A stretch of 62,802 bases of DNA, filler included, from Bonamia ostreae (GCA_040357525.1; 40 parts of 40 records of this genome joined end to end with filler, not necessarily neighbours in it), one strand, 5' to 3'. Numbered from the whole stretch's first letter, positions 357-62,802 are shown. Numbers and translations: made by a program. The notes: generated by a model not told the origin, from the letters alone.

Positions 357-1401
357 ATGATGATAATGGTAGAACAATTGTACATAGTAGGAGCGATCAT
401 TATTTTATCCTTTTCGGTCTATTTTGGATACTTCAAATCAGTTTCTCTTCTATCCCCGCCGACACCGACAGGTTGTTCCAATAATGGCAACACAAAATAA
501 TTTTGATAATTATTAACTCGTTATTAAAGGCAAAACTTTATTTTCTGCCAATTTCTCGTTAAAGTCAAATTTAAAAAATTTTAAATCTCTCAAAAACAAA
601 ATAAATTTGAAAAAATTTGGCAGTTTACAAATTTAAAAAATTTTAAATCTCCCAAAAACAAAATAAATTTGAAAAAATTTGGCAGTTTACAAATTGGAAA
701 GATTGCAAAAAAATTGTTTTTGACAAAAAAGACAGCGGTCACGAAAGAAGAAAAATGTTCAAGAACACCAAAAATCTGCAAAAATTGGATTACAAACACA
801 AAAAGAGCATAAATTACGGCGTTCCGACCGAAAAATTGTGCATTTCCGGATCCTTTTTCGAACGCAACGAAGAAGGCTTCAAATTCCATGTCCAGATCAT
901 CAAACCGGTTCCGCCGGTTGTCCCAAAAGCGGTCATTTGCTTCGTGCACGGCTACAGCTCCGGCGCCATCTACCACATGAAACAGCTCTGCGACAACTTG
1001 AGCAGCGGTGGATTCGTTGTCATCGCGATGGACGGAAGGGGGCACGGACTAAGCGACGGATTGCATTGTTACATACCCGACTTCGAACAATATGTCGAAG
1101 ACTATTATCAGTGCTTCAAAAGACATTCTGCGCCGTTCGAATCTCTGAACAAATTCCTTTTCGGAATTTCGATGGGCGGCGCGGTTTGTTTGCATCTTTT
1201 GGAGAAAGACAGAAAGGCGAATCTGTTTAAAGGAGCGATATTGTCTTCGCCGATGGTGAAAATACCTGCGAAGAAGATTCCGAATCGATTCGTTTACACC
1301 ATTTTTGTCGTTTGCAGTTATATTTTCCCTTCTGCGAAGATAACGCCAGCTCATTACGACGACAAGTTTTATAACGACGACGAATTGGCTTCTTTTATAA
1401 A
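357..1401 (+). CDS. Monoacylglycerol lipase/lysophospholipase (alpha/beta hydrolase), protist, 3' partial
   Basis: Motifs FVHGY, DGRGHGLSDG and nucleophile GISMGG. Exon 1 (357-471, hydrophobic anchor) joins in phase across GT-AG intron 472-731. Next donor GTTTTT at 1402. Confidence 0.85.
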
Positions 1402-1484
1402 GTTTTTTTTTATTTTAGTGCTTTTTGTTGTTTTCTTCGTTGTTGAATTTTGTTTTGTCGTTGTCACTAAAATTTTTTATTTTT

Positions 1485-1584
1485 NNNNNNNNNNNNNNNN
1501 NNNNNNNNNNNNNNNNNNNNNNNNNNNNTTAATTAATTAANNNNNNNNNNNNNNNNNNNNNNNNNNNNNNNNNNNNNNNNNNNN
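1485..1584. other. Artificial contig spacer N44-TTAATTAATTAA-N44 (first of 39 identical spacers, last at 61241-61340)
   Basis: Identical 100-bp block about every 1.58 kb. The 12-mer gives stops in all six frames. Flanking contigs shrink monotonically from 1484 to 1462 bp. Confidence 0.99.
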
Positions 1585-2820
1585 AACACAAGGTACCTAG
1601 TTTCAAACGGGGAACATTTCTGAAACATTTATAACTGTTCTTGTTACAATTAGCACTAGTTACAATTCCTTATGATTCAATATTGAATTCGACACCTGAA
1701 GATTACCCTGCGTAATGTATGTAATTTCTCTTGTATTATCCAAGTAATCCGTCAAGTTTTTTTCCCTTTCGTTTTGAATATGGAGAACATCCCATCTTTT
1801 CTTAAGAGTCATAGTGTCCCAGGCTTTATGGTTGTCTTTGGATATTTTTTGTTTGTTCTATTTAATTAATCTTCCAAGTTTTTTATACATGTAATATGGG
1901 GACCTCCCTATCTTTTCTTAAGAGTCATAAAGTGCACTTAATTATTATCTTGGAGTTGACATGTGGTAAGAACTCAAAAGATAAATCACAAACATCTAGA
2001 ATAGACATGTCTTCGTTTTATTGAAGTTCACAATCGATATCAAAACAACTGAACTTTAAAAGCAGATCTTACTCAACAGATGAATTGCACTAGGCACAAG
2101 AATATTGAATTACCACTTCCTGGAAAATGTGCTATTGCTATAAATAAAAGCCGGGGGACGAAATAGTTTAAAAGAAATTAGAAATCGTGAAAAATAGGTC
2201 TCTATATGTGTGTTAAGTACAATCGAAAATAACCAAATGTATATTTTCTTTAGTAACATAAATACAATTTATCAAACAGAATGTAGTTTATTGCCAAGGA
2301 TTTCTCAATAAACCAAACATGGGGGGGGGGGGGTATGTATAGAGAGTTATATAAGGAGGGGTGTATTAATATAAATTTAAACTTTTGAACAACATAGAAA
2401 TTTTATGAGTCCCTTAATTTTTCAGGAATGTAATATTTGTATTTATTACAAAAAATAATAATTAAAAAAATGAAAACCCTACGTCAAAACATTACATCAA
2501 CTCATATATCCATTTACATTATCTAAATTATTTTTCTTGTCATTTTATTTTGTATCTGGTGTCCTTACGATATGATTAATTGATTGAAATATCATTTAGA
2601 TATTTCTTCTTTGCATTAGTTGTTCCTTAATTGATTTAATGCCATAATAAAATATAACATCATCTTTAATGCCCTCTTTTATATAACAGACGGAACGGTT
2701 TTTTTCTTAATACATTCTTACTAAACGTGTGTGGTTTCTTTCTTTATCATTGTCAAGAAAATGCAAAATAGGATGGGATTTTCTCATCAAGAAATCTTGA
2801 AAATAGCATAACATCTTTCT

Positions 2821-3066: not shown

Positions 3067-3665
3067 NNNNNNNNNNNNNNNNNNNNNNNNNNNNNNNNNN
3101 NNNNNNNNNNTTAATTAATTAANNNNNNNNNNNNNNNNNNNNNNNNNNNNNNNNNNNNNNNNNNNNGCTCTGTTTCGAATTTTGATTTCTTTAGCCGTTC
3201 CAGACAATGTTTTGTGACTTTTATCTAGAATCATTTTTTGGTTTGTTCTATTTAATTTTTTTGTTTGTAAAAAAACTAAAATATTTGTTTTACTTGACAA
3301 TTTTTATACTTGTTTCGATTAAATAAAGGTTTGCAAATTTTATTAAATTTTATTAAATTTTCAGTCTACCATTTTTTATTTAATTGCAAGTTAAGTCGAT
3401 TAAGATTTAATCTCTTTTCCATTTCGTTTTTCGTCGAATTATCATTTTTTTCAATTAACATTTTTATCGGAAATGTCGTCTTGGCATTCTGCTTAAATGA
3501 TTTTTTTAATAAAAATGTAAATAAAAAACGAAAATGTTTTTTTCGGGCAAAATTAAATTTGCCGTTTTGATTTTTAAAATCAATTTTGACCAAAATGAAT
3601 ATTTTATAATAATTTTTTATTTTTTAAATTTTCAATTATTTTTAAATTGAAAAATTTCAAAATTT

Positions 3666-4547
3666 TCATTTTAGTTTATTTAGTCGATCTTCAAGGTTTC
3701 CGAACTCCTTTTTGCTGTCACTCGATTCATTTGCCGAACCATTTTTATTGTCACTTGTGCTTGATAAATTTTGTAAATCGCGTTTAAATTCTTTTTGGTT
3801 TTTATCATAACTATTTTCGGATAAATCTGCGCCATTTTGATCTATTAACTTTTCCATTTCTTTTTCAAATTCTTCTTCTTTTTCTAAAAATTGCCAAAAA
3901 TAACCAAATTTTGTCAAATCGATATCCAAATCATATTCCTCTGAGATCGATTTCAATCGAGAAATAACTCTTTTCCGCCGAGGAGGATTGACGCTTAGCC
4001 AATCTTTCACTCTTTTTTCAACATAAGCTTCGTTTGTAATCACGTTCGCCTCGAACTCTTCTCCGAATCGATTCGTCAATAATTTCATCGTCTGTTAAAT
4101 TGGAATTTAAAACTTTTTCCAGTTCGTCAGTTTCGATGCGATCGGAACAAAATTTGCACGTCGAGATTTTCTCTTTTATGTCGATAGGCAATTCGTCCAA
4201 AGAATCGATGAGACCAACTCTTTCTTTCAAAGTCTAGATGACAAGAAAAAACTTCGATGACGACAATTAAATGTTCGAGACACAAAACCAAATCTTCGCT
4301 TCTTATCAAACTTTCGCATTTTATCATCGCCAAATCGGTTTTTTTGTTTTGAAACAAATTTGCGATCTTTTTAAAGTTTTGTTGGAAACTTCTTTTTTTG
4401 TATCGGCGACAAAATTTGTTTTCTTTTCAATGTTGACTTGTACTCTTGAAATGGCCAGTTTCAGATAAGTTTCTCTAAAATGTCAAATTGTTACAGTGTT
4501 CTTCTGAACTTTTTGCTTTTTTGTGATGTCGTTTGAGCTGCGCCCAT
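3666..4547 (-). CDS. IST1: IST1-like ESCRT-III/Vps4 regulator, complete gene with 4-5 tiny introns
   Basis: Removing GT-AG introns 4475-4494, 4367-4389, 4234-4252 and 4092-4113 gives one ORF: LETYLKLAISRV..KKEIANLF..AMIKCESLIRSED..LKERVGLI..LSVNPP..RLKSISEEY. C-terminal MIM1-like FGNLEDRLNKLK. Confidence 0.85.
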
Positions 4548-5380: not shown

Positions 5381-5830
5381 GTGTTTTATATAGAGTTTAC
5401 TGGGTTATATCAAATCGACATATGTTTTTAAATAAGTAAAACGTAGTTGATATGTTCAAATACTGGGTCTAACGAAATGGTAAGATTTTTTTCTCCTCAT
5501 TTAAAACATTTATTTTATATGACAATAACAGGTCAGCTTTGCAATTAACTTCAAATTCAACAATACTGTTTTCCCCCGAAAATCAAATTTATGACAACTT
5601 TTTTTTAAAACCCTAACGTTAACCATGTATGCAAAATTTGATTTACTAATCTGTTTCAATATCATGCTTTGTACGCACCGGTGATTTTGAACTACGCTAT
5701 GATGTTGTAGTTTGGAGCAGTTCTATGTTATCATCTTAGTTTCAAATAAGTTGAAAATTTAAACTGAATTTTAGTAATTTATACACTTTAATTGATATTA
5801 TCACTAATAACCCAATTTAATTTTCAACAG

Positions 5831-5965
5831 AGAAAATATCCCCCTTTCCATTACGATATGAATGTGGTGCCCGTTTGGCAAGATTGTATAAACGGAACAG
5901 GGATCACCGTCGGGGTTGTTGACGGAGGAATCATGTGGAAAGATCCGGATATATCACACAAAAAA
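5831..5965 (+). CDS. Proprotein convertase (furin/kexin-like S8) internal exon, host
   Basis: DMNVVPVWQDCINGTGITVGVVDGGI..DPDI matches the S8 catalytic-Asp region. Flanked by ttttcaacag and gtaagt. Confidence 0.7.
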
Positions 5966-6667: not shown

Positions 6668-9562
6668 GTATGACATTGTTTGTTATATTCAGTGTCTTTT
6701 GATTTTCGTTTGAATTGTTCGCAGAATATTAAACAATTTTGTTCCATTATTTCTTGCATTTTAAAAACAAATTGATCATAGTGGTGATTTAAAACAAAGC
6801 ATAATATACGCTGTTGAGGTATTGCTGGGTGTTGATCACCCTGACTTGCCATGATGCAGAAGATACCCAAATTTTGTTAGCATATTGGATTTCAGCCATT
6901 TCCTCTGAAATAATTTATATTTGTGAGGGTCAATTTTCATGGATCGTTTTATGTTACAATTTCATTTGAGTGTAACTTCGTTTCTGTGAATTTAAACATT
7001 ACATAATTTGTGTATTTCATTGTGTTTGAAAATCGCAGGATAGAGTTATCTACAAAATCTAATGATTCAATAGCAAGATAATGAGATTTCTACATAATGT
7101 ATTTTATCTTATGCAGTGTTAAATGTAGCACTGTAGTCGGATGACGATAATGTGTTATAGATGTAATTTTGACGTTCCTTAGTGTTTGCCTCGACCTAGA
7201 AAGACACTCTGTCATTGGATAAAACGTGTCATTTAATTGCTGTCTAAATTTCATTAAACGCCGAGTAGCAAAGTTTAGATTGCAACCCCTAACGGCGTCC
7301 GGAACGTCTTTTGTAATTGTGTATCTTTCTTATACATATTCATATGTTAAAGATATTGGTCTTCAACAAACCAAAACACTGATCTTATTATTAGGTTTGC
7401 TACTGACTATCTACAGAAATTTAGCAGGTTTTTAAAGTCCACAGAAGGATCAGTGTCGCCTCGCCGTCTTTGGTTTTAACGACCTGACAAATTTCTGTAG
7501 ATAATCAATAAGAAACCTAATGAGGTATATTTTGTATAATGGCAGTATACTGTATATATTTTGACTTCAGTGTGACACCAAATGTTTCTAAGCTATTGTC
7601 ATCACAAACCTGAGTTTATCAACTCCACTGACAACCATGCAACTTGATAGCTATTAGATAACTTTGGTAGACATCAGCAATGTTCGGAAACGGTTATACT
7701 CAGCATTTCTATGTTATCTTCCTGGCTTGTGTTCAATTACCATGTGACATTGACTTAGCTCTAGTAGACTATGAAATGTGAAGATAACGCTAGCGATTCA
7801 CAGAGAATNNNNNNNNNNNNNNNNNNNNNNNNNNNNNNNNNNNNNNNNNNNNTTAATTAATTAANNNNNNNNNNNNNNNNNNNNNNNNNNNNNNNNNNNN
7901 NNNNNNNNAGAGGCTACTTTAAACAGGAAGAAATATGGTGAGTGGTTTTTTTTAAGATCACCTAAGTAGCTTCTGAAAATTTTCTACCAACATCCTTTTC
8001 TACCGCCCAGAACAATAAGAATCTAAAACCATGCTTCCCAACAGTAGTTAGTAATTTGTCATAACTCATACTAGCTTAATCACATCATAGACACTCTTGA
8101 ATTTGTTTGGGAATTGCAATTTAGGATTTAATGTATAGGGATTGTCATAATTTCTGACAAGCATGTTTATGCTCATTGAAATGATTTTAGCTTGTGGGGA
8201 TGAATATCCTGACAACCATGGTTATGACCATTGATACAAATATGTACATGTATTAATACTTTTGACTTAATAACTTTGAATTTTGACATACTTTTCAAAA
8301 TCCTTATCGTTGACAATATCGAATGAAACCAGCAAGGGGTACTGACTGCCCTATTCTAACTGTTATACACATATAAATGAAGGAAGTAATCCAATTCATA
8401 TTGTTTGTAATTTAAGATATTCATGTGTTTAATGATTTAATTGGACTAACTCGAACTAATATTACTGCGTCGATGATGGAGGGGTGCATTTGGAGCACAT
8501 GTGTAATGTTAAATATGCTCACCTCTACCATTAGCACTAGTTAAATATGTTTTGATTATAATTCACAGAGGTAATCCTGTAGCTCCTTAACCTTTTCTCT
8601 TTGAACTAAGATTCATTCATGTACTTATACCTTATAGGAAACAAGCATCATAAACTGTTGTACATTCTGGTTATGAGCCTGCAGTACAATCATTCTTGGG
8701 GAGGAGTGTACAAAACTCTAAAACACCACGAGAAATATCCAAATATGAAAGAAACCAGCATGGTCATAAAGAAATCTTCAAAAACAACACTGAATCAATG
8801 CTCAATATTCCAGAGGAGATGGATGGTTCAGCCTATAGTAAAGGTCATTCATTGACATTCCTGTCCCAGGATCTGATCAACAGTGGGGAATGGGTGAAAT
8901 ACAAGAACAATGATGTAAGTAATCAAATAGACAGGATACATTATTTAAGATTAACATGGGTTAGGGTGGGGCCACAATAGGGGACCATAGTCTTATATGC
9001 GAATGTATAAGGAACCAAACTAGACACAAAACATCCTTTATGTTAATATGGAAAGCCTTATTCATGTATAATGGCATATGCTATTTAATGAATTTTTGGT
9101 CAACTATAATAATTAAGTTTGATTATTAACATAATTAATCAATCTTTGTAGGTTGTTAACTGATTATGAAGTTTTTTTTTCTTTTTCTTAACTATTAATT
9201 TGATTGTTTTATTTTTGAAATTTACTAATTTTGATATTTTTGTTTTCTTATTTTATATTTTCATAATTGTTAGTTTGTGAAAGTATTTATTCTGGTATAT
9301 TTTTAGTATGATTTGCGTGATTTAAAATAATCTTTGTTTACTTTTTCATGATATGTTTTAGTGTTTTATTATTTTTTTTTATGTGTGTNNNNNNNNNNNN
9401 NNNNNNNNNNNNNNNNNNNNNNNNNNNNNNNNTTAATTAATTAANNNNNNNNNNNNNNNNNNNNNNNNNNNNNNNNNNNNNNNNNNNNTAAAGATCACTA
9501 ACGGTTATTGATTCCAATATCGGGACATTAATTAAAATACTTTCATAAAAGATTATTTAATT

Positions 9563-10794
9563 ATGATTTTTTGCGCCATTTTTTTATCTTTCGTGTGTTC
9601 ACCACCTCCATTATGCAAGAGATTCAAAATCAAAGATAAATATTTTATACCTAAACCAAGCGAAAATCGATACTATTGCAGTACAGCTGTTTTGGATATT
9701 GAAATTCCTGCAAATTTGCAACCGCTATCTGAAGTAAACAAAATATGCAGAGTACCTTATCATTTTGATAGTTCACACGAATGCGAGATCAAATTAACAG
9801 ACCATTTTGAAATCTATTTTTACAAGAAATGCAACTTGGCCAATAATTATTTTAACGTAAAAAACAACGTCCTAGAAGACCATATTCTTTGCGAAGAAAC
9901 AGGCGATAACATTTACGATATCAACTATTTTTGCCAGATCACAAAATTACAATCGAGTTTAATAGAAGATGGCGGCAGAAACTGTAAAAAAGGAACATTT
10001 AACAATAATCACTATTTCAGAGGAGAATGCGTCTTGAATAGACCTTATTTCAGCATAAACGGCGATTCTACTTCAGAACATTTATCTTGTGCGTCCAATC
10101 GGGATAATATCTTCGATATAAAAAAATTTTGCAGGTTAACAAAATCGACTTCAACTTTGCCCGCGATCTTATTTTCAGAAAAGGGTGAATGCAACACCTT
10201 TATCAAAGACGAAATTAATTATTACGGAAAATGCTCCTTCGAAAAACCATTTTTCTACAAAAATGGCGTGGTTCTAGATGATTTTATTCAATGCGAAGAA
10301 ACTGACACCGCACACAATTTAATAAAAGCTTGCGAAATTCCGAAATCCTCCGAAAGATTTACAGTGGACAAATCTAAATGTTCTTCTAAGGATAAAGATG
10401 GCAAATACTTTTCCGAGAAATGCACAAATACAGATTCGAATGCTTCTGGAAATTTAATTCGATGCGACAAAGGCGATTTATTGTGTTTAATTGTTTTAAA
10501 ATAGATCGATTCGATACCTGCGAAAACAATTTGACTTATAAATGCCAAAATGTTAAATTCGATGATATAGATTTCATAAAAGAAAATTGCAATCTGCAAA
10601 CTAAAAATGGGCTCAAGTTTAAAAAAGGCAATGAATTGGTAGACTCTTTTGTTATCACTGATTTTAGTTCATGTGATAATATAAAAATTTACAATGATAA
10701 CATAAATGACGATGAAGCAACTGGAGAAGAGAGTGGAGATGTTACTTCCGTTGGTCTTGCAGCAATTGCTATTCTTTATGTCGGATTACTTTAA
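9563..10794 (+). CDS. Secreted Cys-rich repeat surface protein with C-terminal GPI-like signal, protist
   Basis: Signal peptide MIFCAIFLSFVCS and repeated ~67-aa Cys modules. The 20-nt intron 10485-10504 joins the two ORFs in frame. Ends in an acidic spacer plus VGLAAIAILYVGLL*. Confidence 0.75.
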
Positions 10795-12391
10795 TATCTG
10801 CATAAATATCTTACTATTTTTTTGTTTATTATAAATTTCTTGCCAAATTTAAAAAAATGTTGTAAAAGCATATCTCTGTCGACCTAAATGATTTCGAAAA
10901 TCAATTTCCAAAGTCTAAATTCGTTTTTGTCAAAATTTAAATGATTTTTAGCCCATTCGATGACAGANNNNNNNNNNNNNNNNNNNNNNNNNNNNNNNNN
11001 NNNNNNNNNNNTTAATTAATTAANNNNNNNNNNNNNNNNNNNNNNNNNNNNNNNNNNNNNNNNNNNNTGATAACTATGATTAAACACATTTTAAAAAAAT
11101 TAAGTTTTTTAGAGTGTTGCATCAATCGCTTTCAGATTCAATAGATAAGCTAGTCTAGCGACACATAAACGAGCTAATGTTATAATGACTGTATCCCCAT
11201 GTACTATAGTTCTTGAAGTCTGAATTAGAAAATAGCTACCATAGTTTTTCATTCATTGTCTTTATCATGTACTACCGAATGAATGATGCATGTAAACTTC
11301 CCTTTTTCTTATAAATTGCTAGAAAATTGTTACGTTTTATGAAGTCATTCCAGCCAGATTAGTAATATAGGGCGAAACCTTCTTGTTTTAGACTCATTTT
11401 CACTTCAAAATTGTACTTTTAGTTTGCTGTCTATTGTTTAACACAAATCTCCATCATGTAGTGTCAAATTTATTTTCTCTATCTGATTTCTATTTTTAGA
11501 ATATCGGATACATATTTCCATATTGAGTGTTTGCATGTATGCTCCAGGTTTGCCAAATGATACATTTGTTAACTTTATACAGTACTTCCTGGTAAATCCA
11601 CTCTTTAATACATTGAAATCAAAATGGATATACCACGAAAATACTCCTCAAAGTCAAGGGTGTCCGTTTTCCGAGTATTTTGTAAATCTACATTATCGAT
11701 CATTTTCAACAGAGAAAATATATTACGTTAAGATATCGTTATTTCAATACATATTTTGGTAATTGAAAAATCTACTACAAACTTATTTTATGTGAGATAA
11801 ACTTTTATTATGAAATAATCAGAGAGCCAGTGCGTCACAGGGAGAGGGCCTCAGTAGTATGCTTACTCAAAAAACTTACTCACACTCTCATCTGTCATTA
11901 GAATTATATGCAAGTATTGACGCACATACAATGATGAACGATCATGAATGATTGTTACTCATTGCTACTGTTTTGTTACCAGTTTACACCAATTGTTACC
12001 GAACGTCGCTTTGGTTTCAGACGATAGAATCTGGAACACGTCTGTTATCAAATATAGCAGCATTATATATCGGATGAATAAAAACCACTCATTTTAAACT
12101 CAGTGAAAAACCATGTTAATTCAATCTATATATCCCACTATCAAAGTTGTTTAATATTTTTGTACATGAATAATTGTGCCATTTCATTTTCGTATTTATG
12201 ACACATTTTTGACAATATCCTTCTATTGTCACATTTACAAAGATTGCTGTTTAACATGGGCATTCTTTACAACTTTCTCCCTCTGCACATAATTCCCTCG
12301 CTACGTCCAGTGGTATGTGGATGTTCTTCTTTATTTTAAGCATTTTTATAGGGTAAATCTAAAAATGTCGATATATGTTTGTACATTGTAG

Positions 12392-18184: not shown

Positions 18185-18859
18185 TCATTTATTTTTCTTC
18201 AAAGTTTCTTTAATCTCGTTCAAACGACCTAGACAATCCGGCCGATTCGGAAGATAAAAAACTTTTTCGACGATCAAATTGTAGAGAGAAGGCAAAAAAT
18301 AGCCGATTAACGAAGCGATCCAAACGTTCGAAGGAAAATAAATTTCTTCTTTCTGTTCCGAAACTGCGCGAACGAAGCATTTAGCCAAATTTTCAGGCGA
18401 AACCGATTTCGTTTTTAGTCCGTGATGGTCTCTTGTAAACGCGGTGTCGGTTGCTCCCGGGTACATTATTGTTACATTTATTGGATGCCCTACAAGACAC
18501 ATCTCGCGTCTGAAATTGGAAAAATAAGCCCTCAAAGCGCTTTTTGCTGCAACGTAGGATCCGTCGAATGGGAGCGCGCCCTTGTTGCAAAAAATTGCTA
18601 AGAAAAAATGGCGAAATAATAAAATTTGGACAAACGGCAACGCCGCCTGAACATGTGACAGCAACAGAAGGTTTAATTTTGGAAGCGACAAGACCACACA
18701 AAGAAATGAAAAGCAGTCTGACATGGCTCTCATAATTGCACTGGTTGATTTTCTGGAAATGGAGCCAATTTATTCCTCTTTCGTATTCCAGACAGAATCT
18801 GTTTTCTAAAATTCCGTGGTTTAAATGGAGCACGTCGATACGCTCAAAAAGACTTTCTG
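18185..18859 (-). CDS. Short-chain dehydrogenase/reductase (11-beta-HSD/DHRS7-like), 5' partial, protist
   Basis: RIDVLHLNHG..VTCSGGVA|GALPFDGSYVAAK (YxxxK)..VTIMYPGATDT. The 55-nt intron 18581-18635 joins the two ORFs. Confidence 0.85.
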
Positions 18860-27769: not shown

Positions 27770-28222
27770 TCATTTACTCGACTTTTCCTTTCTAATTTCA
27801 ACTGGCGATTTTCGATCATTGTCCATAATCCGCTTGAACCAAACGCGCTTTTTGTCGATAATTGGACTTTTTGAATGTTTGGCTTCTTCCAACAAATAAT
27901 CAATTATTTCTCTGTCGTTCCCCATTTTCTCATCCGTCAACCATTTTCTCGAGCAATACAAACCTCGAGTCGAATACATCGCGTTCAGCATTCCAAAAAC
28001 TGCCGTCGATTTTAATATTCTCGACGGCGGAGATTCTTTTTAAGATTCGACATTAAAATGATTTGTTCGAAAAATAATTGAACTGTAGACAAAGCTGACA
28101 ATGGCCGCAACTGCGCCGCCATAAAAAATATTTCTGAGAAGATTTCTTCTCGTTCGGTCGTCGTTTAAATGACCAAACCGAGGGAAAACGTATTCGTTTT
28201 TTCCGTACCAATGATTGTACAT
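27770..28222 (-). CDS. Small membrane protein, two exons, protist
   Basis: Two ORFs join in frame across a 48-nt GTTCAA..AAAAG intron. One or two hydrophobic segments. Confidence 0.45.
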
Positions 28223-29988: not shown

Positions 29989-30180
29989 CGCCATTTTTAT
30001 CATAATTTTTTTCGTTTTTAGACAAATTTTTGTCGCCATTTTTATCATAATTTTTTTCGTTTTTAGACAAATTTTTGTCGCCATTTTTATCATAATTTTT
30101 TTCGTTTTTAGACAAATTTTTGTCGCCATTTTTATCATAATTTTTTTCGTTTTTAGACAAATTTTTGTCGCCATTTTTGT
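29989..30180 (-). repeat. 45-bp coding tandem repeat ([15 protein letters not shown]) x4 or more
   Basis: Exact repeats running into the contig end. Confidence 0.95.
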
Positions 30181-31462
30181 TATTATCCAAAAAATTTGGC
30201 AATTTGTGATTGTTGAGATCTTCATCGTCGTCACAAAAATCAAACAAATTGGCCAAATTATGTTTCGAAAATAATTGCTTTCCGTTTTGTCTGGCGTCCT
30301 CCAAGATTCGATTGCTCAAAAGTTGTTTGTAAATTTGTCGATGATAAACTTTTTCTTCGATCGTCCCTTTTGTGATAAGTCTGTAAACTACGACCTCTTT
30401 TTTCTGCCCGATTCGGAAGGAGCGCTCTACTGCTTGATTGTCTATCGACGGATTCTTTAAAATAACAAATCAAAATTTTACGAAATTAAAAAATCAACGA
30501 AATAAATTTATCAAAAAAAATCAGCGAAAAAAACATTAACGAAAAAAAATTAACAAAAAAAAATTAGCAAAAAAATCAGCGAAAAAAATTAGCAAAAAAA
30601 ACAGCGAAAAAATCAGCGAAAAAAAATTAGCAAAATAAATTTAACGAAAAAAAATCAGCAAAAAAATTAACGAAAAAAAAGAAAATTTAACGAAAAAAAT
30701 ATCAAAACCCAATCCGGATCAAAAAGCAAAACTCGGTCAGCGCCAATCAAATTGAGCCCAAGACCGCCAGTTCTTGTCGTCAAGAGAAAACAGAAAATGG
30801 ATTCGTCTTCATTAAATCGATTAATCATTTTTTGGCGAGCGCAAATCGGAGTGCTTCCGTCGAGTCGGAAATAAGAAAACGTTCTAATTTTGAAAAAATT
30901 TACTTTAATTCTTCTTCGATAATATTTAACATTTGAATAGTTTGACTAAATATTAATACGCGATGATTTTCTTCTTTCCAGATCGAAATGATTTTGTTCA
31001 TAATATTTAATTTACAAGATTTCGAATCTTTATTTTCAAAAGTTTTTGAGAATTTTTAAATTTGCAAAAATGAAAAAATGTAAATTGTTTAAAACTTTTC
31101 GAAACAGAATTGTCGTGCAAATACAAATCGACGTGATTGCAAATTTTTCTCAATTTGTCGATTGCTTTGTACATTAATCCTCTTCTTCTTTTCATCCTAA
31201 AAATCGGAAATTCTTTTAAAACAAAAATGTAATTTTGTTTTTGGTATTTTGTCAATTCGCATAAAAGAACCTTTTCAAAATAATGATAATTTTGATAATT
31301 TTAAAAATGTCAATTGTCAATTGGAAGTTTTTAAACTTTTTCTTTTTTGTTTTTGAGTTTGAATTGTCTTTTGACTTCGTTTTTGTGTCGTCTCAAAATG
31401 TAAGGATTTATCAGTTCTTTTAAATGTACTGCCAATTCAAACGCGTTCTTTAAGTTTAATTT
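29989..31462 (-). CDS. ERCC6: ERCC6/CSB (Rad26) SNF2 helicase, C-terminal half, protist
   Basis: [70 protein letters not shown] and the CSB-type [19 protein letters not shown]. Intron 30455-30708. Confidence 0.9.
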
Positions 31463-31890: not shown

Positions 31891-31902
31891 CAATAAAAAT
31901 AG

Positions 31903-33035
31903 CAAGATGAAATAAGAAAGAAATTGCATAACCAAGTTCAAGAACTAAAAGGAAACATTCGGGTTTATTGTCGGGTTCGACCTTTAGTCAAAACGGATAA
32001 ACATTTTGGCAAACAAAACATCGTTTCTAATTTAAAAAAAATTTTTATTTTCAACACAAAAAATAGTCATTCGAATTTCCGGAAGACAGTTTAAACCAGA
32101 AAATTGTTGCATTAACGAAAAAACAAAATAATCTAAAATCAAAAAAACTGAAAATTGTCAAAAGGGAAATCTCTTTTGACCGAGTTTTCAGTCCAAACGA
32201 CAAACAAAATGTCGTTTTCGAGTTTTTTTAAATTGTTTTCCGACAAAATTTCATTTTTCCAAATTTATCATAATCGAAAACAAAAATAAATTTTATCAAA
32301 ATTTTGTAAATTTTTTGAAAAGAGAAATATCGCAGTTGGTGCAAAGTGCGTTGGACGGATATAAAGTTTGCATTTTTGCGTATGGACAAACGGGTTCTGG
32401 AAAGACGTTCACGATGGAAGGACCGGAAAACATGAACAACAAAAATGACGAGGGAATGATCCCTCGTTCGGTTAAAAAGATTTTTGAGCATATTAGAGAA
32501 CACAAAGTTTTGATAATTTTATTTTTTGTTGATTTTGCGATTACTGCAAAAACCAATTTTTCGAAAATTAGAAAAATTGGGAATACAAATGCGAAGTCTC
32601 TTTTTTGGAAATTTACAACGAAGAAATCAGAGATTTGTTGACTTCAGAAAATAAGAATATTCAGATCTCATTGGAAGATGAATATAAACCAGCCAAAAAT
32701 GCTAAATATGGTTAAATTTAGCTTTTTGAATTTCGACAAAATTTACTTTTTGCAAAAAATTTTTTAGTCAAAGTTACGTCCGAATCGGAAATAGAACCGC
32801 TTCTCCGAACCGCGAAAAAAAATCGGTCGGTCGGGAAAACAGACGTCAACGAATATTCTTCGAGAAGCCATTCGATCTTCCAAATTATTTTGAACGGGAA
32901 AAACCCGGAAACGGGTTTTTCAGTGAATGGCGCACTAGTTCTCGTGGATTTGGCTGGAAGCGAAAGGTTGAAAAAATCGAATTCGACGGGGCAAAGGAAA
33001 GAAGAAGCGAAGTTTATAAATAGCAGTTTGAGCAT
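31903..33035 (+). CDS. Kinesin-14 (Kar3/KIFC1-type) C-terminal motor, partial, protist
   Basis: Neck [26 protein letters not shown]-loop [30 protein letters not shown]. Introns 32023-32066, 32222-32322, 32507-32571 and 32711-32767. Confidence 0.95.
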
Positions 33036-36349: not shown

Positions 36350-36843
36350 ATGACATTAATCCTAAAATTGCTATTTTTGTTCCAAATTTTATCTGCAAAA
36401 TGTCTTTTCCCTTTAAAAAGAAAAGATATCGAAATCAATCAAGAAAATTTGAATTTAAACGATAAAATTATCACAATTCGACAAAACTGTCCTGAAAACG
36501 CAATTTTTGCAAATTTGGCAACAATGGAACAATTTAATTCTATCACAATGGTTTGTTTGCCATTTTTTGACGAGTTCGTTTGGTTACAAGATAATTTGAC
36601 CAAAATAGACCAATTTGAATGTTTCAAAAATTATCCTGAATTTGAATCTATATCGTTTGCTTCAATTTTGTTTCTTTTCTTTTGCTCTGTTTTGGCTTTT
36701 TATGCGATATTGGCAGTTGTTTCTATAAATTGCAAGAGAAAAGTCAAAATTACCGTTTTTTTTAATTTTTTGTTATCTTTTTATTAAAAAAGTCGAAAGA
36801 TTCTTTATATTTCGATAACCCAAATTATGAATACGAAGAGTAA
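36350..36843 (+). CDS. Small type I membrane protein with FDNPNY cytoplasmic tail, protist
   Basis: Signal peptide, Cys-containing ectodomain and TM. The 38-nt intron 36755-36792 adds SKDSLYFDNPNYEYEE*. Confidence 0.6.
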
Positions 36844-38820: not shown

Positions 38821-38822
38821 AT

Positions 38823-39317: not shown

Positions 39318-39419
39318 NNNNNNNNNNNNNNNNNNNNNNNNNNNNNNNNNNNNNNNNNNNNTTAATTAATTAANNNNNNNNNNNNNNNNNNNNNNNNNNN
39401 NNNNNNNNNNNNNNNNNAT

Positions 39420-40111: not shown

Positions 40112-40439
40112 TGTTAAAAATTTTAATTATTTCACCTATAACAAAGATTATAAATTTAATATATGATCTACATGCATTGATGGCCATTTTCGACATATTT
40201 ATTATATATGATCAAATTTTATATTTTATTATATACGAATTTTATAAAACAGGTGACAGAATAAGATAAATTTAATATTAAAAAATTTAATAATATCAGT
40301 TTCCCATGTTTAAAATTTAATAAAATAGATTTTAATATTGTTTTATACTACAACATTTATGTATATGTTAATTATGCAATGCGTTATATGTGTTAATACA
40401 TTTATATATATAAATATATATATAATTATTTGCTATATA

Positions 40440-40886
40440 ATGGTAATTTCCAAATAATACATAAGGGTAATACACTACAAATATCAAAAAAGGAAGAGAT
40501 TAGAAGTGTCTACGAATTTAAGGAAACTCTTGGAACGTTTAGATAATTATTTTTAGAGGTAGTTTTGCTGTTGTAAAGAAAGCTATTAGAAAAAGGGACG
40601 GAATGATATTTGCAATTAAGATAATTAAGAAGAAAAAATTAACTTCAGAAGAACTTGAAACAATAGACGAGGAAGTCGCAATTATGCATAAAGTTATAAT
40701 TATTGAACGATTAGATCAAACATAAAAATATTGTCGGACTTTATGAATTTTATGAATCACCTAAAAGTTTGTTTATGGTTCTAGAGTTTCTTTCGGGTGG
40801 AGAATTATTTGATAGAATTGTATTAAAAGGTCAATACTCGGAAAAAAAGGCTTCCGAATTAGTCAAAGAAGTCTCTTTGGCAATAT
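40440..40886 (+). CDS. CaMK-family Ser/Thr kinase N-lobe, 3' partial (absent from the ORF track)
   Basis: M|GNTLQ..YEFKETLGT|GSFAVVKKA..FAIKII..EVAIMHK|IKHKNIV..LEFLSGGELFDRIVLKGQYSEK. Introns 40443-40465, 40537-40556 and 40693-40714. Confidence 0.92.
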
Positions 40887-42764: not shown

Positions 42765-43974
42765 TCATATTAATTTATGTTTAACAACAAATTTTTTTTG
42801 TATCCAAATCCGGCAATCTTCTTTTTTCGATTGCGGATTCAAAAGTCGCCAATTAAACTGTTCGTCTAAAATTTTTTTATAAATCGGTCCCGGTTCAATT
42901 TTAAACTCGTTTTTCAATTCTCTTCCCTTCATTTTTTTTATTTTCGCAAATTTTTTACTAAAATTTAGCTTTGAAATATTTATGTTTTTAACAATTTGGG
43001 AACAAAAAACTCCGAAATACGGACTTTGTTTCCATAAATGACAATTATCGATTTTAAGTTTTACAATCAGATCAAAAATGTCTTTTTCGTCATTTTTGTT
43101 ATTTTCGAACAAAATTTGACCAAACTTAATCATTTCTTTCCAATCGTCGCCACATTTGGCTAAAAAATTCCCGAAATTTAAAATGTCTTTGTTTTTTAAC
43201 GGATTCAACAAAAAAAGTGACAACGCCAATTCACAAAAATTTGTTGTTTTTTCTGCCATTTTTGACGATAACTATTTAGAAAAATTAGTTTTAAACTTTT
43301 AAAGAATTTTCGACGATAAATCGAATCAGAGAAATCTCCTTTTTCTTGTATAAAACTTTAAACGGCGCTAACGGCAATAAAATAGCGCTCAAAATCCAAA
43401 TCGGCCGATTTTTCTTAAAACTCCCAAAATTTAACAAATTGCTAAATTTTAAAATTAAAACTTTTCGACAAAATTTAAAGCCGTTTTTGATTTCTCTTTT
43501 ATTTTTTGACTTTCGATCGAAAAAAAATTTTTTTCTTTATTAAAAATTTAGCCAAAATTAGCAAATTTTAAAATTTTCTAAATTTGGTTAAAACCAAATT
43601 TGAAATCGGGAAAAATGACATTTCGCGGAATTTTAAAAATGACATCGAAAATTTCCATTTCGAAAATAAAATTTAAAGCGATCGAAGGTTTCGGACTTTT
43701 TTCGATAATTTTTAATATTTCGATTCCGAATCTTTCTCTGCTCACTTTGGTCGATAGCGCTTTCTGCCGTTTTTGAATTCAACAATTGCCAAAATTGGAC
43801 AAAAAAAACTTTGAAATCTGGTTTGGCGGCATTAAATATCAAATTGTCATCGATGCCAAATCCAAAACGAGAAGAAAATCTACAAGCTCTTAACACTCGC
43901 AAAGGATCGTCCAAAAAAGTCTTTTTTGGATCCAACGGCGTTTTCAATTTCCATTCCAATAAATCTTTTACGCC
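42765..43974 (-). CDS. CCA1: CCA-adding tRNA nucleotidyltransferase, C-terminal part, protist
   Basis: KTPLDPKKTFLDDPLRVLRACRFSSRFGF..|KALSTKVSRERFGIE..KGREL..PGP..Q..W...NP. Intron 43764-43809. Confidence 0.9.
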
Positions 43975-44122
43975 CTTTATACAATTTGATTTTTGTAAAT
44001 TTTATTTTTGCCAAATCAAATTNNNNNNNNNNNNNNNNNNNNNNNNNNNNNNNNNNNNNNNNNNNNTTAATTAATTAANNNNNNNNNNNNNNNNNNNNNN
44101 NNNNNNNNNNNNNNNNNNNNNN

Positions 44123-45590: not shown

Positions 45591-46090
45591 NNNNNNNNNN
45601 NNNNNNNNNNNNNNNNNNNNNNNNNNNNNNNNNNTTAATTAATTAANNNNNNNNNNNNNNNNNNNNNNNNNNNNNNNNNNNNNNNNNNNNTAATAGCAAA
45701 TTCGAAGAAATCATGGTTTTAAACAACTGCTTTATGATAATACAATCGGGGAGCATCAGTTTATGATTTTTATGCTTTATATGATTACCGAATGTCTTAG
45801 AAATTAATTAAAGATCCTATATACAGAAATATTGAAAATATTAAAAAATGATAAAGAAAGAACTAATGATTGATCGAAGAACTCTTTTAGCAAAGACAGA
45901 AAAGGAGCTCTAGAGATATGGCATGGACGCTTCGAAAGAAATGACAGAAACTAAGTCTTACAGGCGATCACAATGAGTAATGTCATTTTTGCCATTTTAA
46001 CAAATTTTATTGGTTTATTTCGCTTTATAGATTAACTAGATATCATAATAGCAGTTCAAATATAATTATTTTAGCGATTTTTTTAATCCA

Positions 46091-47074
46091 ATGGGAATTG
46101 AAGAGAATATTTTCTGCCACCCAAATGATGTTTTTATTAAATTTGTTTAAGATTCCAGTCACTCTTTATTGCCCAGGTTTTATGCACTTCAGTGCTAATT
46201 TTTTTTTATGTTTAGCCAGATTGCTGATATTGATAATTTAAGTTTGTTTAAATATTGTTTTGGGCCCCGTTGTGTCGAAATGCGGGCACTTGTCTTGCAC
46301 AGATTGGTTTTATAATTTTAAGTACTGTTACAATGACTAAAATATTACAACAAAGCATGGAACAGTATTTAAAGCATAGCAATAAGTGCCCAAAATGCAG
46401 ATGTGATATTGACGAGAAATCATTGTTGTTTTCTAAAGAGACTCAGTTTTTTTAATAAAATCGGTTTTGAGACTCAGTGTTTTACCAAAGAGACTCTAAA
46501 TTTGTTGAAAATTTAATTCAATTAAAGAAAACAAGTTTCGACTTTTGAAGTTTATTGTGACCCGGAACCATTTAAACGATGTGGTTGGACAGGTCCCTAT
46601 TCAGAGTTACGAAACCATTTAAAAAAATGTCCTACAATTAGTCTAGAAGTTCCGGACAAAAAGTTTTCGATTAACATTAGTTCAAATGAACCAGATATCG
46701 GTTTATTACTAAATTTTTAAAATAAAAAATATAAATTAACATTGATTGCGGCATTGAAAATATTGACATTAGATGAGATAGCAAAATTGAACGTTGAAGA
46801 CATTGAAAAAATGTCGACAAAAAAATTGCTGAAATTCAGCAAAGATTTTGGGGTGTCAAGTGAAAATGTTTTAGAGAACAAAGAAAGGGTCGATAAAGTT
46901 TTTATATTTAAGAAAAAGTTTATCGATTCCGTTTATATTCCTGAAATGGCGAAGAACTTTGATATGGAGCATATTCCAACAAAGTATTTAATGCGTTTTC
47001 TTAAGCTTAGAAGTTTGAATTTTGTTGTTAAAAATTTTGAACCGTTTCAAAAATTGGGAAAACTAAAAAATTAA
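46091..47074 (+). CDS. RING-HC plus TRAF-type zinc-finger E3 ligase, protist
   Basis: Removing introns 46130-46151, 46177-46242 and 46307-46355 gives YCPVC..PVVSKCGHLSCTDC..CPKCR. Later VYC..CGWTGPYSELRNHLKKCP. Confidence 0.8.
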
Positions 47075-47389
47075 AGAAATATCGTTAAACGGATGTTTAG
47101 AGAAAAAAGACGTTATGGAATTAGTGAGATTGCATAGAAATGAAAAAAAAAATTTACANNNNNNNNNNNNNNNNNNNNNNNNNNNNNNNNNNNNNNNNNN
47201 NNTTAATTAATTAANNNNNNNNNNNNNNNNNNNNNNNNNNNNNNNNNNNNNNNNNNNNATTTTTGCGAGATCTTTCGAATGATATCAAGGAAAAAGCCCA
47301 TGGACTTCATGGCTCACCTGAACAGTCGGATTATTATCGAAATCAATAAGTTTTAAAATCAAAAATAGATACAACCTATAGTTGTATAG

Positions 47390-57236: not shown

Positions 57237-57997
57237 ATGAGATTCCCGAAATCTGCGTTGTTAGCTCTAATTGTGTACATGATCATAAGAAGTTCGCAGA
57301 AATTTGGATTTGTAATTCCATTTATTCTTTTTGTTTTAATAATAATTGTTTTCGTCTACTTTTCTAATCCAAAAAAATCTGACAGTTTTTATGAACCCAA
57401 ATTTTTATGTTCGACAACAATCGAAATTTTAATTGTTGACATCTTTAAGTAAAAATTGCCGCAACAACATAAAAAATAGATCTGGATTTGATCCACTTAA
57501 TAGACGACATCTCTTCTTCTCCAAACACAATAAATTCCAATTTTCCAAAATGGCTCACTTACAAAGGTCACGAAAAAACTCATTTTTTGAATTACAGTTT
57601 CCGCGTTATGTGGAACCCGAAACTTAAAAATTGCTTCGAGAAAAGTGTGTTTCCGTTTATCGAAAGGAAATTAGAACAGAAAAAGATCAGCGTTGTCAGA
57701 CTAGATCTTGGCACGACATCTCCAATTGTAAAATGTAATTTATCGCTTTTACGATAATTTTAAAAATTCTGAATTTGAGACGTAAAAATAAATTTTTAAA
57801 AAGAAAAATTTAAAAAAACAGACATCAACATTGGCAATACAAATTGCGCGCAATGTGGTAAACATAAATGCACAAGAAAAAAATGCGAAGATTTGAGTTG
57901 TTCAATTGTCGTTGAAATTTATTTTGAATCCGATGACGCTGAAATCGACGTTTCAACCGAATACAAAACAGCTAAAACTAACCTCTGCTTAACAAAT
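57237..57997 (+). CDS. Extended-synaptotagmin/tricalbin-like protein (TM hairpin plus SMP domain), 3' partial, protist
   Basis: N-terminal hydrophobic hairpin, then FPKWL..EKTHFLNYSFRVMW..RLDLGTTSPIVK. Introns ending at 57479 and at 57735-57821. Confidence 0.65.
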
Positions 57998-59778: not shown

Positions 59779-61240
59779 GACAGAAAGCGAGAGAAACCGC
59801 TGGGGCTTTAAATGCTTTATAAAAGGCGTTTCAATCCATTCAACGCCTTTTCTAATCGATCTCAGCATCTCTTTGTCTTCCATTTCTAAAAACATCTCCA
59901 AATCGCTCATTAAAACACCAAATCTCTTAAACGAAGAGATCTTTCTCAAACCTTGGTTCCAAACCTTATTAAGTTGTGGTCTCACCACCAAAATCAGCAA
60001 TTTTGACAATTTTTCCGCCGATTTTATCGCCGGAAAGCACACCGCGCTTCCTTTACTGACCATTTTCGACCAAGTCGAACACAAGTGGCTGCTCGGAACC
60101 GGTAGAGATCGAGTCAAAAGAAGTCGGTTGTGGGTTTGCTCCATTCGAGCGATGGTGTTGGCCATGTTGAAACATGTCGGATCGCTCAAAGCGGCACTCA
60201 AAATTTGCAATCCGGCCGTTGCGGCGAAGAATGTGCGTAAATCGCTTTTGTTGAAAATCAAAATGTGCGTTTTGAGCGCAAAAAAACTTCAAATGTGGAT
60301 GTATGGACGGGCGCAGGCTTTGAAAACATGGGATAATCTGTGGCATAATGGTAATTGGTCCCAATGATTTTTGTAATTTGTGTTGTAACAATTATTTTTT
60401 GTTGACGAATTTTTGTGTTGCAACAATTATTTTTTGTTGACGAATTTTTGTGTCGCAACAATTATTTTTTGTTGACGAATTTTTATGTTGTAACAATTAT
60501 TTTTTGTTGACGAATTTTTGTGTCAACAATTATTTTTTGTTGACGAAAACAATTATTTTATCGTAAATTATTTGGCTGTAACACAACAAAAAAAGAAATT
60601 GCCAGAGAAAAAACAAATAGAGATAAGCTTTGCGAAGAATTTTATAAAGAATATAGTCAAAATTCCGGAAACGAAACAATTGAACTTTTATGTCAGCTTA
60701 AAAATGTTCAATATATTGCCAAAAATCCGCTTTTATCAATTGAAGGCTTGTTTAAAGTACTTTTGAATGAATTGGGAAAGCCAAGAAAGGACTCTTTAGA
60801 TCAAGTTTTTAAGAGAATTTAAAAATTTGGCATTTTTAAAAACTTAAAAAAGGTCGCGGAAAAAGTAATTAATTTCGCTGAAACGATTATTTCTTTTCGA
60901 TCGTACGAAAAAGAATGTTCTCGGAGAAGAAAGAAAAATTTGACGAAACAAGCCGAAGTGAACTTGAATTACGACGATCGCTTATTGGGACAAATTCAAC
61001 TTGATGAGATAAATAGGTCGTTCAGTGACACCAAAGTTAGATTGCCAGACATTCGAAAAATAGATTTGGGCGAAGACAAAATGATTGTTCCGTTTATTAA
61101 AAGATCGCTTTCAACGCCTTTTACGTCTATTAATAAACAAATGTTGGCCAAACGATCTGAGAATTCAAGAATTTTGGCTAATTTGTACAATGTTTTTTGC
61201 TTTTCCAAATTTAAAAATTTTTAAAATTGCAATTTTTCGC
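59779..61240 (+). CDS. Internal exons of a large protein (possibly HERC/HECTD4-like E3), protist
   Basis: Open frame from the contig start to the GTAATT donor at ~60350 (..RAMVLAMLKHVG..), with further exons downstream. Family call is weak. Confidence 0.35.
60380..60560 (+). repeat. Intronic ~35-bp tandem repeat x5
   Basis: TGTTGTAACAATTATTTTTTGTTGACGAATTTTTG units. Confidence 0.9.
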
Positions 61241-61348
61241 NNNNNNNNNNNNNNNNNNNNNNNNNNNNNNNNNNNNNNNNNNNNTTAATTAATTAANNNN
61301 NNNNNNNNNNNNNNNNNNNNNNNNNNNNNNNNNNNNNNNNCAAAATAA

Positions 61349-62802
61349 TTAATACATTAAATTTTTTAAAAGACAAAAAAAGTTAAAAAAATAATGTTTC
61401 AGATTCGTAAAAAAGCCAAAAAAAGTTATTTGCAATACCTGAACAATGGCCAAACCATCTTCAATCCTCACCAAGATAACAATACCAATATCAATCATCA
61501 GATTACGCCTCAAATTCTTCCCGCGTTTAAGCAATTTTTGCCAAACGCGCTCTTCGCCCTCTTCCTTTTCCCACTCGAGACTATTTATCCTTCGTGACAC
61601 TTCTTTCAAATGCGCTTCATCGAAAACACCGAAGTCTAAAGACATGTTGAACAAAGCTCCGATTTTTGTGCATTCGGGATGCTCCGGGCCATATTTGTTT
61701 GCGTACTTTAAAAAAGTGTTGTTGATTAGTCCCAAAGAATTGTTGCTGCTGTGGAATGCGAACCATTTCTGTCTTTCGTAAAGTTCGTTTATCGAAGAAG
61801 TTGTTCTCCTGTTTTTCGTTGATGTGCCATCGTCTTTTTATTAATTGTAACAATGAAAATTGTTATTGAAATTTTTCTTTTTTGAAAATTAGTTATTTGT
61901 ACAAAATTTAACATTTTAAAATAATTAATTAAAATCGACCATTTTTTTGACAATTTTTATTATTACTTGTAAAATCGATTTTTTATTATTATTTTGGACA
62001 TTTTTTTATTATTATTTTGACCATTATTTTATTATTATTTTGGCCATTTTTTTATTATTATTTTGACCATTTTTTTTTATTATTATTTTGACCATTTTTT
62101 ATTATTATTTTGGCCATTTTCTTATTATTATTATTTTGGCCATTTTTTGTTATTTGTAAATAAACAAAAATATTTTATTTTGAAAACGGAAACCTTGAAT
62201 AGAAATGTAAAAAGGTTCGACAATGTTGGCAGAGTTCACAAAGCGCTCGTCCCACAAAACGCTGTACATGTCTCCGTCCAAATCTCCGCTGCTCATTTCG
62301 TCACAGTGCGGTCGAGGACCGGTTGTCGGGAAAATAATGACGTCTCTATAAATTTTATATCTGTCGTCGGCTTCAACACAGCGAAGTTTCCTGATGTCGC
62401 CGAGATGGTAACAAGGATTGCGGAAAACTAGTACTTCGGCATTGAAGATCTTAGAATATCCTTCTTCCAATGTTGGGTTAAAAAAGCATTCTCCGTATTT
62501 TAATAAACCGAACGGATCACAAACGCCATATCTTTTTTAATTTTGTTATTTTGAAACATTTAATTTTTATTTTGGTCGAAAACAGATTGAAATTCTTTTA
62601 ATTTTGTTATTTTGAAACATTTAATTTTTATTTTGGTCGAAAACAAAGATTGAAATTCTTTTAATTTTGTTATTTTGAAATATTTAATTTTTATTTTTGA
62701 TCGAAAAATATTAAAATTTGATTCAATAAAAGTAATAAATTTCAATTAAATAAAGTACACTAATCTTCCTTTAGGAACAAAAATTCTCAGCCGTTCGGCC
62801 TC
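61349..62802 (-). CDS. Cellular (RNAi-type) RNA-dependent RNA polymerase, partial, protist
   Basis: RIFVPKGRLV|YGVCDPFGLLKYGECF..RNPCYHLGDIRKL..VIIFP..GPRPHCDEMSSGDLDGDMYSVLWD..LGLINN..SLDF. Introns 62532-62758 and 61834-62193. Confidence 0.93.

Follow-up and report, generated by a model that had tools for sequence, protein, structure and literature searches.

How does a cell find its introns when most of their donors offer little to the standard U1 and U6 small nuclear RNAs (snRNAs)? This question is raised by the splice sites of Bonamia ostreae, an oyster parasite of the Haplosporida (Ascetosporea, Rhizaria) whose introns are described as "canonical" in the accessible text of its genome paper (PMC11069148). 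We addressed it in a window of 62,802 nucleotides (the whole stretch of DNA analysed here) from assembly GCA_040357525.1. The window consists of 40 contigs of 1462 to 1484 nt each, ordered by length and joined by spacers of the form N...TTAATTAATTAA...N (e.g., 1485-1584 and 3067-3166); adjoining genes are unlinked, and the stretch does not represent a single locus. A note made from the sequence alone (the original prediction) had proposed that the protist introns in this window use GTT donors without G at position +5 and A-rich AAG acceptors. We confirm that they are genuine GT-AG spliceosomal introns of B. ostreae with splice signals that have drifted from the eukaryotic norm: after the GU at the 5' end comes a short run of U (GUUUU or, more rarely, GUAA), while the 3' end is A-rich and closes with (A/U)AG before an exonic A.

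The most direct evidence comes from a kinesin gene on the contig at 31563-33035, the one contig on which RNA reads (public runs X1 and X2) were tested. Its exon at 32324-32506 matches GenBank P0004 ("Kinesin-like protein kifc1, partial [Bonamia ostreae]") at 100% identity. A 1880-nt RNA contig from run X1, with a depth of 251, aligns to the gene in five blocks, the four joints of which remove all four of the introns tested. Each joint is a GT..AG pair with no extra letters between its two sides, each donor begins with GTT, and all four agree both with the introns that had been placed earlier by homology and with those in model P0004 (Table 1), so that the junctions proposed from sequence match the RNA in 4 of 4 cases. 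The match of this RNA contig starts at 31903, right after ..AAAAATAG, and over 1100 of its letters are left unplaced; such a start, which the alignment tool did not list as a loose end, fits a fifth acceptor at 31902. Run X2 covers exon interiors only (32329-32497 and 32928-33035) and crosses zero junctions. Two more contigs of run X1 match only from 32273 and 32992 onward, with unrelated sequence before and one of them beginning within kinesin intron 2; such contigs may represent unspliced or alternative transcripts, or else chimeric assemblies.

The wider set comprises 27 introns, 4 of them placed by RNA, 17 by homology or as the sole solution, and 6 by reading frame only. Every frame-keeping GT...AG pair between anchored exons was enumerated and the choice was made by protein evidence; the presence of GT-AG at 27 of 27 introns is thus partly by construction since the enumerator required it, while the four RNA joints are independent of it. 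This enumeration took the place of a signal-blind gene finder (3-periodic Markov model, GT-AG as its only splice signal, minimum intron of 25 nt), which was dropped because a short kinesin exon and every tiny intron escaped it. Two candidates were excluded, i.e., an intron between 57237 and 57479 with three solutions and no basis for choice and a donor-like GTTTTT at 1403 that meets the contig end before any acceptor. Colinearity with Pfam or PDB entries extends across the junctions of the IST1, ERCC6, RNA-dependent RNA polymerase (RdRP), protein kinase, and dehydrogenase genes. In the ERCC-6 gene, a helicase exon matches P0121 ([quoted passage not shown]) at 100% identity, and the junctions of P0121 are those of three introns that we placed (68, 20, and 254 nt), where the alignment to human ERCC6 (7oo3_b) shows gaps of 5, 2, and 0 residues. 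Together, P0004 and P0121 share seven junctions with our set, one of them that of a 20-nt intron, and gene models with these junctions are therefore already public.

At the donor, position +3 is T in 22 introns and A in 5, with neither C nor G, which parallels the 24 T and 5 A that the original prediction had counted among 29 introns. T also leads at +4 (T 18, A 6, C 2, G 1), +5 (T 16, A 6, C 4, G 1), and +6 (T 12, A 10, G 3, C 2), while the last exon base is A in 12, G in 7, and C or T in 4 each. These donors depart from the GTRAGT consensus, with a purine at +3 in 5/27 (all A) and G at +5 in 1/27, the latter being the same GTTTGT at 18635 that had been singled out before. Positions +3 to +6 match GTAAGT in 24/108 cells as compared to 68/108 for GTTTTT, and 7/27 exons end in G, bearing out the premise that these donors misfit standard U1/U6 pairing. 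The same profile (T in 9 and A in 2 at +3, G in none at +5) is seen in the 11 introns for which RNA or a sole solution settles the placement, and the result is therefore independent of our choices among alternatives. It also persists (18 T and 5 A of 23 at +3) when the four introns on three contigs of ambiguous composition (9489-10967, 39418-40886, and 45691-47158) are left out.

How much of this profile merely reflects a T-rich genome can be judged from the contigs themselves, which split into two populations by 3-mer principal component analysis and by their observed/expected (o/e) CpG ratio. A Bonamia-like set of 19 contigs is AT-rich with CpG in excess (o/e 1.2 to 2.3), and a host-like set is CpG-depleted (o/e 0.3 to 0.9) in the manner of animal DNA. 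Among 2190 background GT sites of the Bonamia-like contigs, +3 is T in 47%, C in 23%, A in 17%, and G in 12%; GTT alone is therefore unremarkable, as T follows 47% of all GT sites anyway. True donors nevertheless have T at +3 more often (22/27) than decoy GTs in exons (112/245; Fisher p = 4e-4) or in introns (44/80; p = 0.02), lack C and G at this position (0/27 versus 35% expected; p = 8e-6), and carry T in 56/81 cells at +3 to +5 versus a fraction of 0.42 in the intron interior (p = 6e-7). The excess of GTT donors is thus partly more than composition. Canonical donors have not been overlooked, since the Bonamia-like contigs contain hardly any GTRAGT (2 occurrences on either strand in ~28 kb versus 24 in a similar amount of host-like DNA). 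Measured as relative entropy against intron composition, the donor holds 0.59 bits at +3, 0.19 at +4, 0.16 at +5, and nothing beyond, i.e., about 1 bit past GT.

At the acceptor, position -3 is A in 14 introns, T in 9, C in 4, and G in none; A fills 78/135 cells at -7 to -3 (p = 6e-6 versus intron interior), and the first exon base after AG is A in 20/27 (p = 8e-5). A pyrimidine tract is absent, with pyrimidines in 140/300 cells at -14 to -3, a share no higher than in the intron interior. All six A-run acceptors for which the original prediction had reported no adjacent pyrimidine tract (731, 4367, 32322, 36792, 61834, and 62532) belong to our set, and the other coordinates that it named (472, 18635, and 62758) are likewise intron ends in it. 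Every tiny intron has an A at about -5 to -9, but no positioned branch-point motif was found. We also considered introns of the minor (U12) type and rejected them, as the donor (A/G)TATCCTT occurs in 0/27.

A feature missing from the original prediction is the size distribution, which falls into two classes of 16 to 23 nt and 38 to 360 nt. Nine of the 27 introns belong to the first class (16, 19, four times 20, twice 22, and 23 nt; located at 4092-4494 and 30884-30903 on the minus strand and at 10485-10504, 40537-40714, and 46307-46322 on the plus strand), while the next size is 38 nt and 18/27 introns have at least that length. GT and AG each begin only about 4% of positions, so that nine frame-restoring gaps that all run from GT to AG are not a product of chance. 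For IST1, the Ist1 profile positions 29-64, 68-106, and 110-163 in successive exons leave room only for introns of 19 and 22 nt. The two classes can share a gene: all four IST1 introns are of 19 to 23 nt, but ERCC-6 mixes one of 20 nt with others of 66, 68, and 254 nt. That a third of the introns measure 16 to 23 nt favours recognition by length, i.e., intron definition, at least for the tiny class. At the other end of the range, tandem arrays with units of 14 to 62 nt occupy five of the six introns above 200 nt and the stretch upstream of the 31902 acceptor (Tandem Repeats Finder: 566-695, 30488-30680, 31563-31894, 60377-60547, 61979-62182, and 62535-62718), and the long introns resemble short introns that minisatellites have expanded.

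Table 1. Introns placed in the window, with the evidence for each placement (solutions are frame-keeping GT...AG pairs)
Intron	Position	Strand	Length (nt)	Donor	Acceptor	Evidence
Kinesin-14, 1	32023..32066	+	44	GTTTCT	..AAATAG	RNA joint 32022>32067; P0004
Kinesin-14, 2	32222..32322	+	101	GTTTTT	..GAAAAG	RNA joint 32221>32323; P0004; acceptor 32322 of the original prediction
Kinesin-14, 3	32507..32571	+	65	GTTTTG	..AATTAG	RNA joint 32506>32572; P0004
Kinesin-14, 4	32711..32767	+	57	GTTAAA	..TTTTAG	RNA joint 32709/10>32767/8 (32709>32767, cut +1); P0004
IST1, 1	4475..4494	-	20	GTAACA		Frame and N-terminal motif; 2 solutions
IST1, 2	4367..4389	-	23	GTTTCC	..AAAAAG	4 solutions with one common acceptor; shortest retains conserved residues; next exon from Ist1 profile 29
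IST1, 3	4234..4252	-	19	GTTTTT		Pfam Ist1 colinear, 29-64 then 68-106
IST1, 4	4092..4113	-	22	GTTTTA		Sole solution; Ist1 68-106 then 110-163
ERCC6/SNF2, 1	31271..31336	-	66	GTTTAA	..GAAAAG	2 solutions, chosen one retains SNF2 motif; SNF2-rel_dom in upstream exon; outside P0121, which starts further downstream
ERCC6/SNF2, 2	31028..31095	-	68	GTTTTA	..ATAAAG	Unique solution; in P0121
ERCC6/SNF2, 3	30884..30903	-	20	GTAAAT		In P0121; human ERCC6 (7oo3_b) alignment crosses joint with 2-residue gap; Helicase_C 2-31 then 40-94
ERCC6/SNF2, 4	30455..30708	-	254	GTTTTG	..TTAAAG	In P0121; DPDW|NPS gapless versus ERCC6; 14-nt tandem array
CCA-adding enzyme, 1	43764..43809	-	46	GTTTTT		2 solutions; downstream exon matches PolyA_pol_RNAbd
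CCA-adding enzyme, 2 (uncertain)	43253..43594	-	342	GTTTTA		3 solutions, no homology across joint; lowest tier
RdRP, 1	62532..62758	-	227	GTACTT	..AAAAAG	Unique solution; 61-nt tandem array
RdRP, 2	61834..62193	-	360	GTTTCC (alternative GTTTTC at 62187)	..AAAAAG	Pfam RdRP 349-450 in exon residues 1-99 of 112, then 481-530 from next-exon residue 17
Short-chain dehydrogenase	18581..18635	-	55	GTTTGT (sole +5 G)		5 solutions; chosen one gives usual 13-residue Ser-to-Tyr spacing; adh_short 147-189 from residue 7
Cys-rich membrane protein	10485..10504	+	20	GTTTAA		Unique solution; contig composition ambiguous
Lipase, 5' intron (uncertain)	472..731	+		GTTGTT	701 or 731	6 solutions, no homology; lowest tier
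Unnamed gene	57735..57821	+	87	GTAATT		Unique solution; no homology
Unnamed gene	60351..60595	+	245	GTAATT	..AAAAAG	4 solutions; 35-nt tandem array
Unnamed gene	60805..60852	+	48	GTTTTT	..AAAAAG	Unique solution
Small membrane protein	28036..28083	-	48	GTTCAA	..AAAAAG	Unique solution
Protein kinase, 1	40537..40556	+	20	GTTTAG		2 solutions; next exon from Pkinase profile 10; contig origin ambiguous
Protein kinase, 2	40693..40714	+	22	GTTATA		Pkinase 10-54 then 56-111 from residue 2, exact colinearity
RING finger	46307..46322	+	16	GTTTTA		Removal restores the C-x-H-x2-C-x2-C spacing that is the rule in RING fingers; no profile support
Membrane-protein tail (uncertain donor)	36755..36792	+		GTTTTT at 36755 or GTCAAA at 36743	..AAAAAG	4 solutions with one common acceptor; lowest tier

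What might read such donors? The original prediction named altered U1/U6 snRNAs or a mostly protein- or length-based intron definition. The 5' end of standard U1 (ACUUAC) would pair with little beyond G+1 and U+2, which argues that U1 is altered in B. ostreae or is not the main reader. We favour a scheme in which a Bonamia U1 with an A-rich 5' end would pair loosely with the U run of the donor, the ACAGA box of U6 would add the pairs U+2-A, U+3-G, and U+4-A, and AU-richness together with short length (intron definition) would give the remaining specificity; we assign it a probability of roughly 0.4 to 0.45, its snRNA part being pure conjecture from the splice sites. Both of the proposed pairings draw on the accessible part of a preprint on unusual donors by Roy and Bowser (bioRxiv 10.1101/2022.06.08.495308), which sets the ACAGA box in register with +2 to +6 so that U at +2 to +4 can pair with it, and which describes U1 changes along with the donor in Entamoeba (GUUUGU with U1 ACAAAC) and Mastigamoeba (U1 ACGUAC). 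The window itself yielded no snRNA in Rfam searches in gathering and E-value modes (two chance-level hits only, to PhrS and tmRNA), no tRNA with ARAGORN, and no recognisable spliceosome protein in profile searches of the window proteins.

Several points weigh against this scheme. The RNA evidence comes from a single contig, run, and gene, and the RNA of X1 may be identical to the data used in training the GenBank annotation. The genome was annotated with funannotate trained on published transcriptome reads according to the accessible text of the genome paper (PMC11069148). The other 23 of the 27 introns were placed by homology or frame alone, with the donor claim known when picking among alternatives, and the genome paper labels the introns "canonical". 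Furthermore, about 1 bit beyond GT is far below the strict motif found in Entamoeba along with its changed U1, and so loose a motif fits recognition by proteins, AU content, or length at least equally well.

This last point leads to what we regard as the next best explanation, possible though on the unlikely side, namely that the snRNAs are standard and the donor is merely degenerate (GU plus AU-rich sequence), with introns defined by their AU-richness relative to exons, by short length, and by proteins like U1C or U-binding factors of the TIA-1/Nam8 kind. Besides the low donor information, it is favoured by an intron interior of 81% A+T (19% G+C versus ~36% in the coding training set) and by the nine introns of 16 to 23 nt, a size at which length by itself could suffice for intron definition. 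Plants are comparable in that the AU-richness of introns relative to exons is part of their splice signal and the pyrimidine tract is weak, but their donors remain GTAAG with standard U1 pairing. A point that counts both for standard snRNAs and against an altered U1 is that Thecamonas, the Mamiellales, and 69 budding yeasts have odd donors yet standard U1, as far as the accessible preprint text goes (bioRxiv 10.1101/2022.06.08.495308). However, the donors of B. ostreae would form only about three base pairs on average with a standard U1, in line with the few matches to GTAAGT and the scarcity of G at -1 given above, and the preference of T over A at +3 to +5 goes beyond composition and is not predicted by pure AU-richness.

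It is distinctly less probable that U1 has been lost or is unused, as in the related mikrocytids, with the 5' end read directly by U6 and U5. For the mikrocytids, the accessible report lists only U2, U4, and U6 snRNAs and 17 to 19 spliceosomal proteins as found, next to introns of 16 to 17 nt (PMC10245619); the tiny-intron class of B. ostreae resembles these introns, and the U residues at +2 to +4 suit U6 ACAGA in this case as well (bioRxiv 10.1101/2022.06.08.495308). On the other hand, the enrichment of splicing-gene loss described in the available genome paper text falls on the branch of paramyxids plus mikrocytids, with Bonamia outside it (PMC11069148), and B. ostreae retains introns of up to 360 nt at about two per mRNA. 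An artefact, i.e., a GTT excess made of misplaced introns in T-rich DNA, is a very improbable explanation in spite of a background T of 47% to 55% at +3 and of 23/27 introns without RNA evidence, several of which have alternative GT-AG solutions, because the RNA-verified donors are GTT in 4/4 cases and largely refute it, with GTT in 9/11 and +5 G in none of the RNA-fixed or single-solution introns, neither C nor G at +3 in any of the 27, and GTRAGT nearly gone from the Bonamia-like contigs pointing the same way.

Coming back to an A-rich U1 aided by U6, the closest known case is Entamoeba with its donor GUUUGU(U) and U1 5'-AACAAAC-3' (accessible text of bioRxiv 10.1101/2022.06.08.495308). Both organisms are parasitic protists with AT-rich introns and U at +3 and +4, and in both the donor misfits standard U1 while U+2 to U+4 could pair with U6 ACAGA. 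Yet G at +5 and U at +6 are retained in Entamoeba within a strict motif (88% to 98%; exact GUUUGU in 88% to 90%) as described there (bioRxiv 10.1101/2022.06.08.495308), and the mere ~1 bit beyond GT in B. ostreae argues against a similarly strict, co-evolved motif. In addition, Entamoeba is intron-poor whereas B. ostreae is reported to have about two introns per mRNA, and a matching U1 has been shown for Entamoeba while that of B. ostreae is hypothetical. The same preprint counts six lineages in which the preferred donor misfits U1, a condition that it links to massive intron loss; five are named in the accessible text (Entamoeba, Giardia, Trichomonas, budding yeasts, and the mamiellalean green algae), Thecamonas was also searched, and haplosporidians are outside the six (bioRxiv 10.1101/2022.06.08.495308). 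A literature search, which did not extend to supplements (those of the genome paper may hold sequence logos) or to subscription journals, found no printed description of splice motifs in Bonamia or other haplosporidians. B. ostreae thus joins the lineages with a transformed donor, among which its loose motif and its coexisting class of tiny introns are unusual.

With respect to intron size, the relatives for comparison are the mikrocytids Mikrocytos mackini and Paramikrocytos canceri, which belong to the Ascetosporea like Bonamia and have introns near the lower size limit. According to the accessible report, these introns are all of 16 to 17 nt and highly conserved in sequence and are served by a very reduced spliceosome (PMC10245619), whereas the tiny introns of B. 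ostreae differ from one another in both length and sequence and occur alongside others of 38 to 360 nt. Introns of about 20 nt are also known from chlorarachniophyte nucleomorphs (18 to 21 nt) and heterotrich ciliates (15 to 16 nt; both as cited in the available text of PMC10245619). Like the tiny introns of B. ostreae, they are a class without room for a pyrimidine tract, but each of those genomes has one narrow size class instead of two within the same genes. A bolder and rather doubtful proposal would be that thousands of introns in this organism have essentially no 5' base-pairing code beyond GU, with a U1 that ends in an A tract or is bypassed by U6/U5, length, and AU-richness, and that the mix of introns of 16 to 23 nt with ordinary ones is a living intermediate on the way to the 16- to 17-nt introns and the stripped spliceosome of mikrocytids.

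With B. ostreae, a rhizarian lineage would join those counted in the preprint, showing a pattern of its own (a U run without +5 G in a loose motif at a reported ~2 introns per gene), and intron recognition gains a new natural test case. The organism makes testable whether snRNAs follow splice sites or the reverse, and where the tiny introns of Ascetosporea come from. On the practical side, gene finders that are tuned to GTRAG or to a minimum intron above 20 nt will misannotate this pathogen of farmed oysters. One such case may be IST1 (3669-4547, minus strand), an ESCRT-III regulator whose complete-looking gene requires its four introns of 19 to 23 nt: its fourth exon (40 residues) found no match among proteins of 71 to 2000 residues, a weak hint that the public annotation may lack or truncate this gene.

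The whole B. ostreae assembly has 12.24 Mb in 9705 scaffolds with an N50 of 1417 bp, 33% G+C, and a mean of two introns per mRNA as given in the accessible text of PMC11069148, and the host-like contigs of our window are probably oyster DNA that has remained in it. Host exons had been described in the original prediction as using GTAAG and GTATG donors; this was lightly checked and is supported by the GTRAGT counts and by one exon (5822-5965) that ends at a GTAAGT at 5966, but this exon has no Pfam match and the claim therefore amounts to hexamer counts and one exon judged by eye. Pfam searches with 10 host-like or unassigned open reading frames returned integrase and VWD fragments only, and a CpG-poor contig carries two adjacent long reading frames of 295 and 164 amino acids (37948-39317, minus strand) without Pfam match. 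The ambiguous contig at 39418-40886 (24% G+C, TA-rich, CpG o/e 0.9) is unlike the clear Bonamia contigs yet contains the kinase gene with its two tiny GTT introns, and may belong to Bonamia or to another small eukaryote.

At 61352-62802 (minus strand), the window encodes an RNA-dependent RNA polymerase of the eukaryotic type (Pfam RdRP, E = 4e-32). Neither Argonaute nor Dicer was identifiable in Mikrocytos mackini according to the accessible text of PMC10245619; judged from its sequence, the Bonamia polymerase hints at silencing of the RNA interference type. Several Bonamia-like contigs (e.g., 29989-33035 and 42555-44022) have their CpG excess (o/e 1.4 to 2.3) in DNA of 22% to 35% G+C, and a TCGAAA motif recurs in the noncoding DNA of this set. 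The last ~200 nt of the contig with the CCA-adding enzyme (42555-42760) show a shift in composition and hold one of the only two Bonamia-like GTRAGT hexamers, and may be a chimeric contig end.

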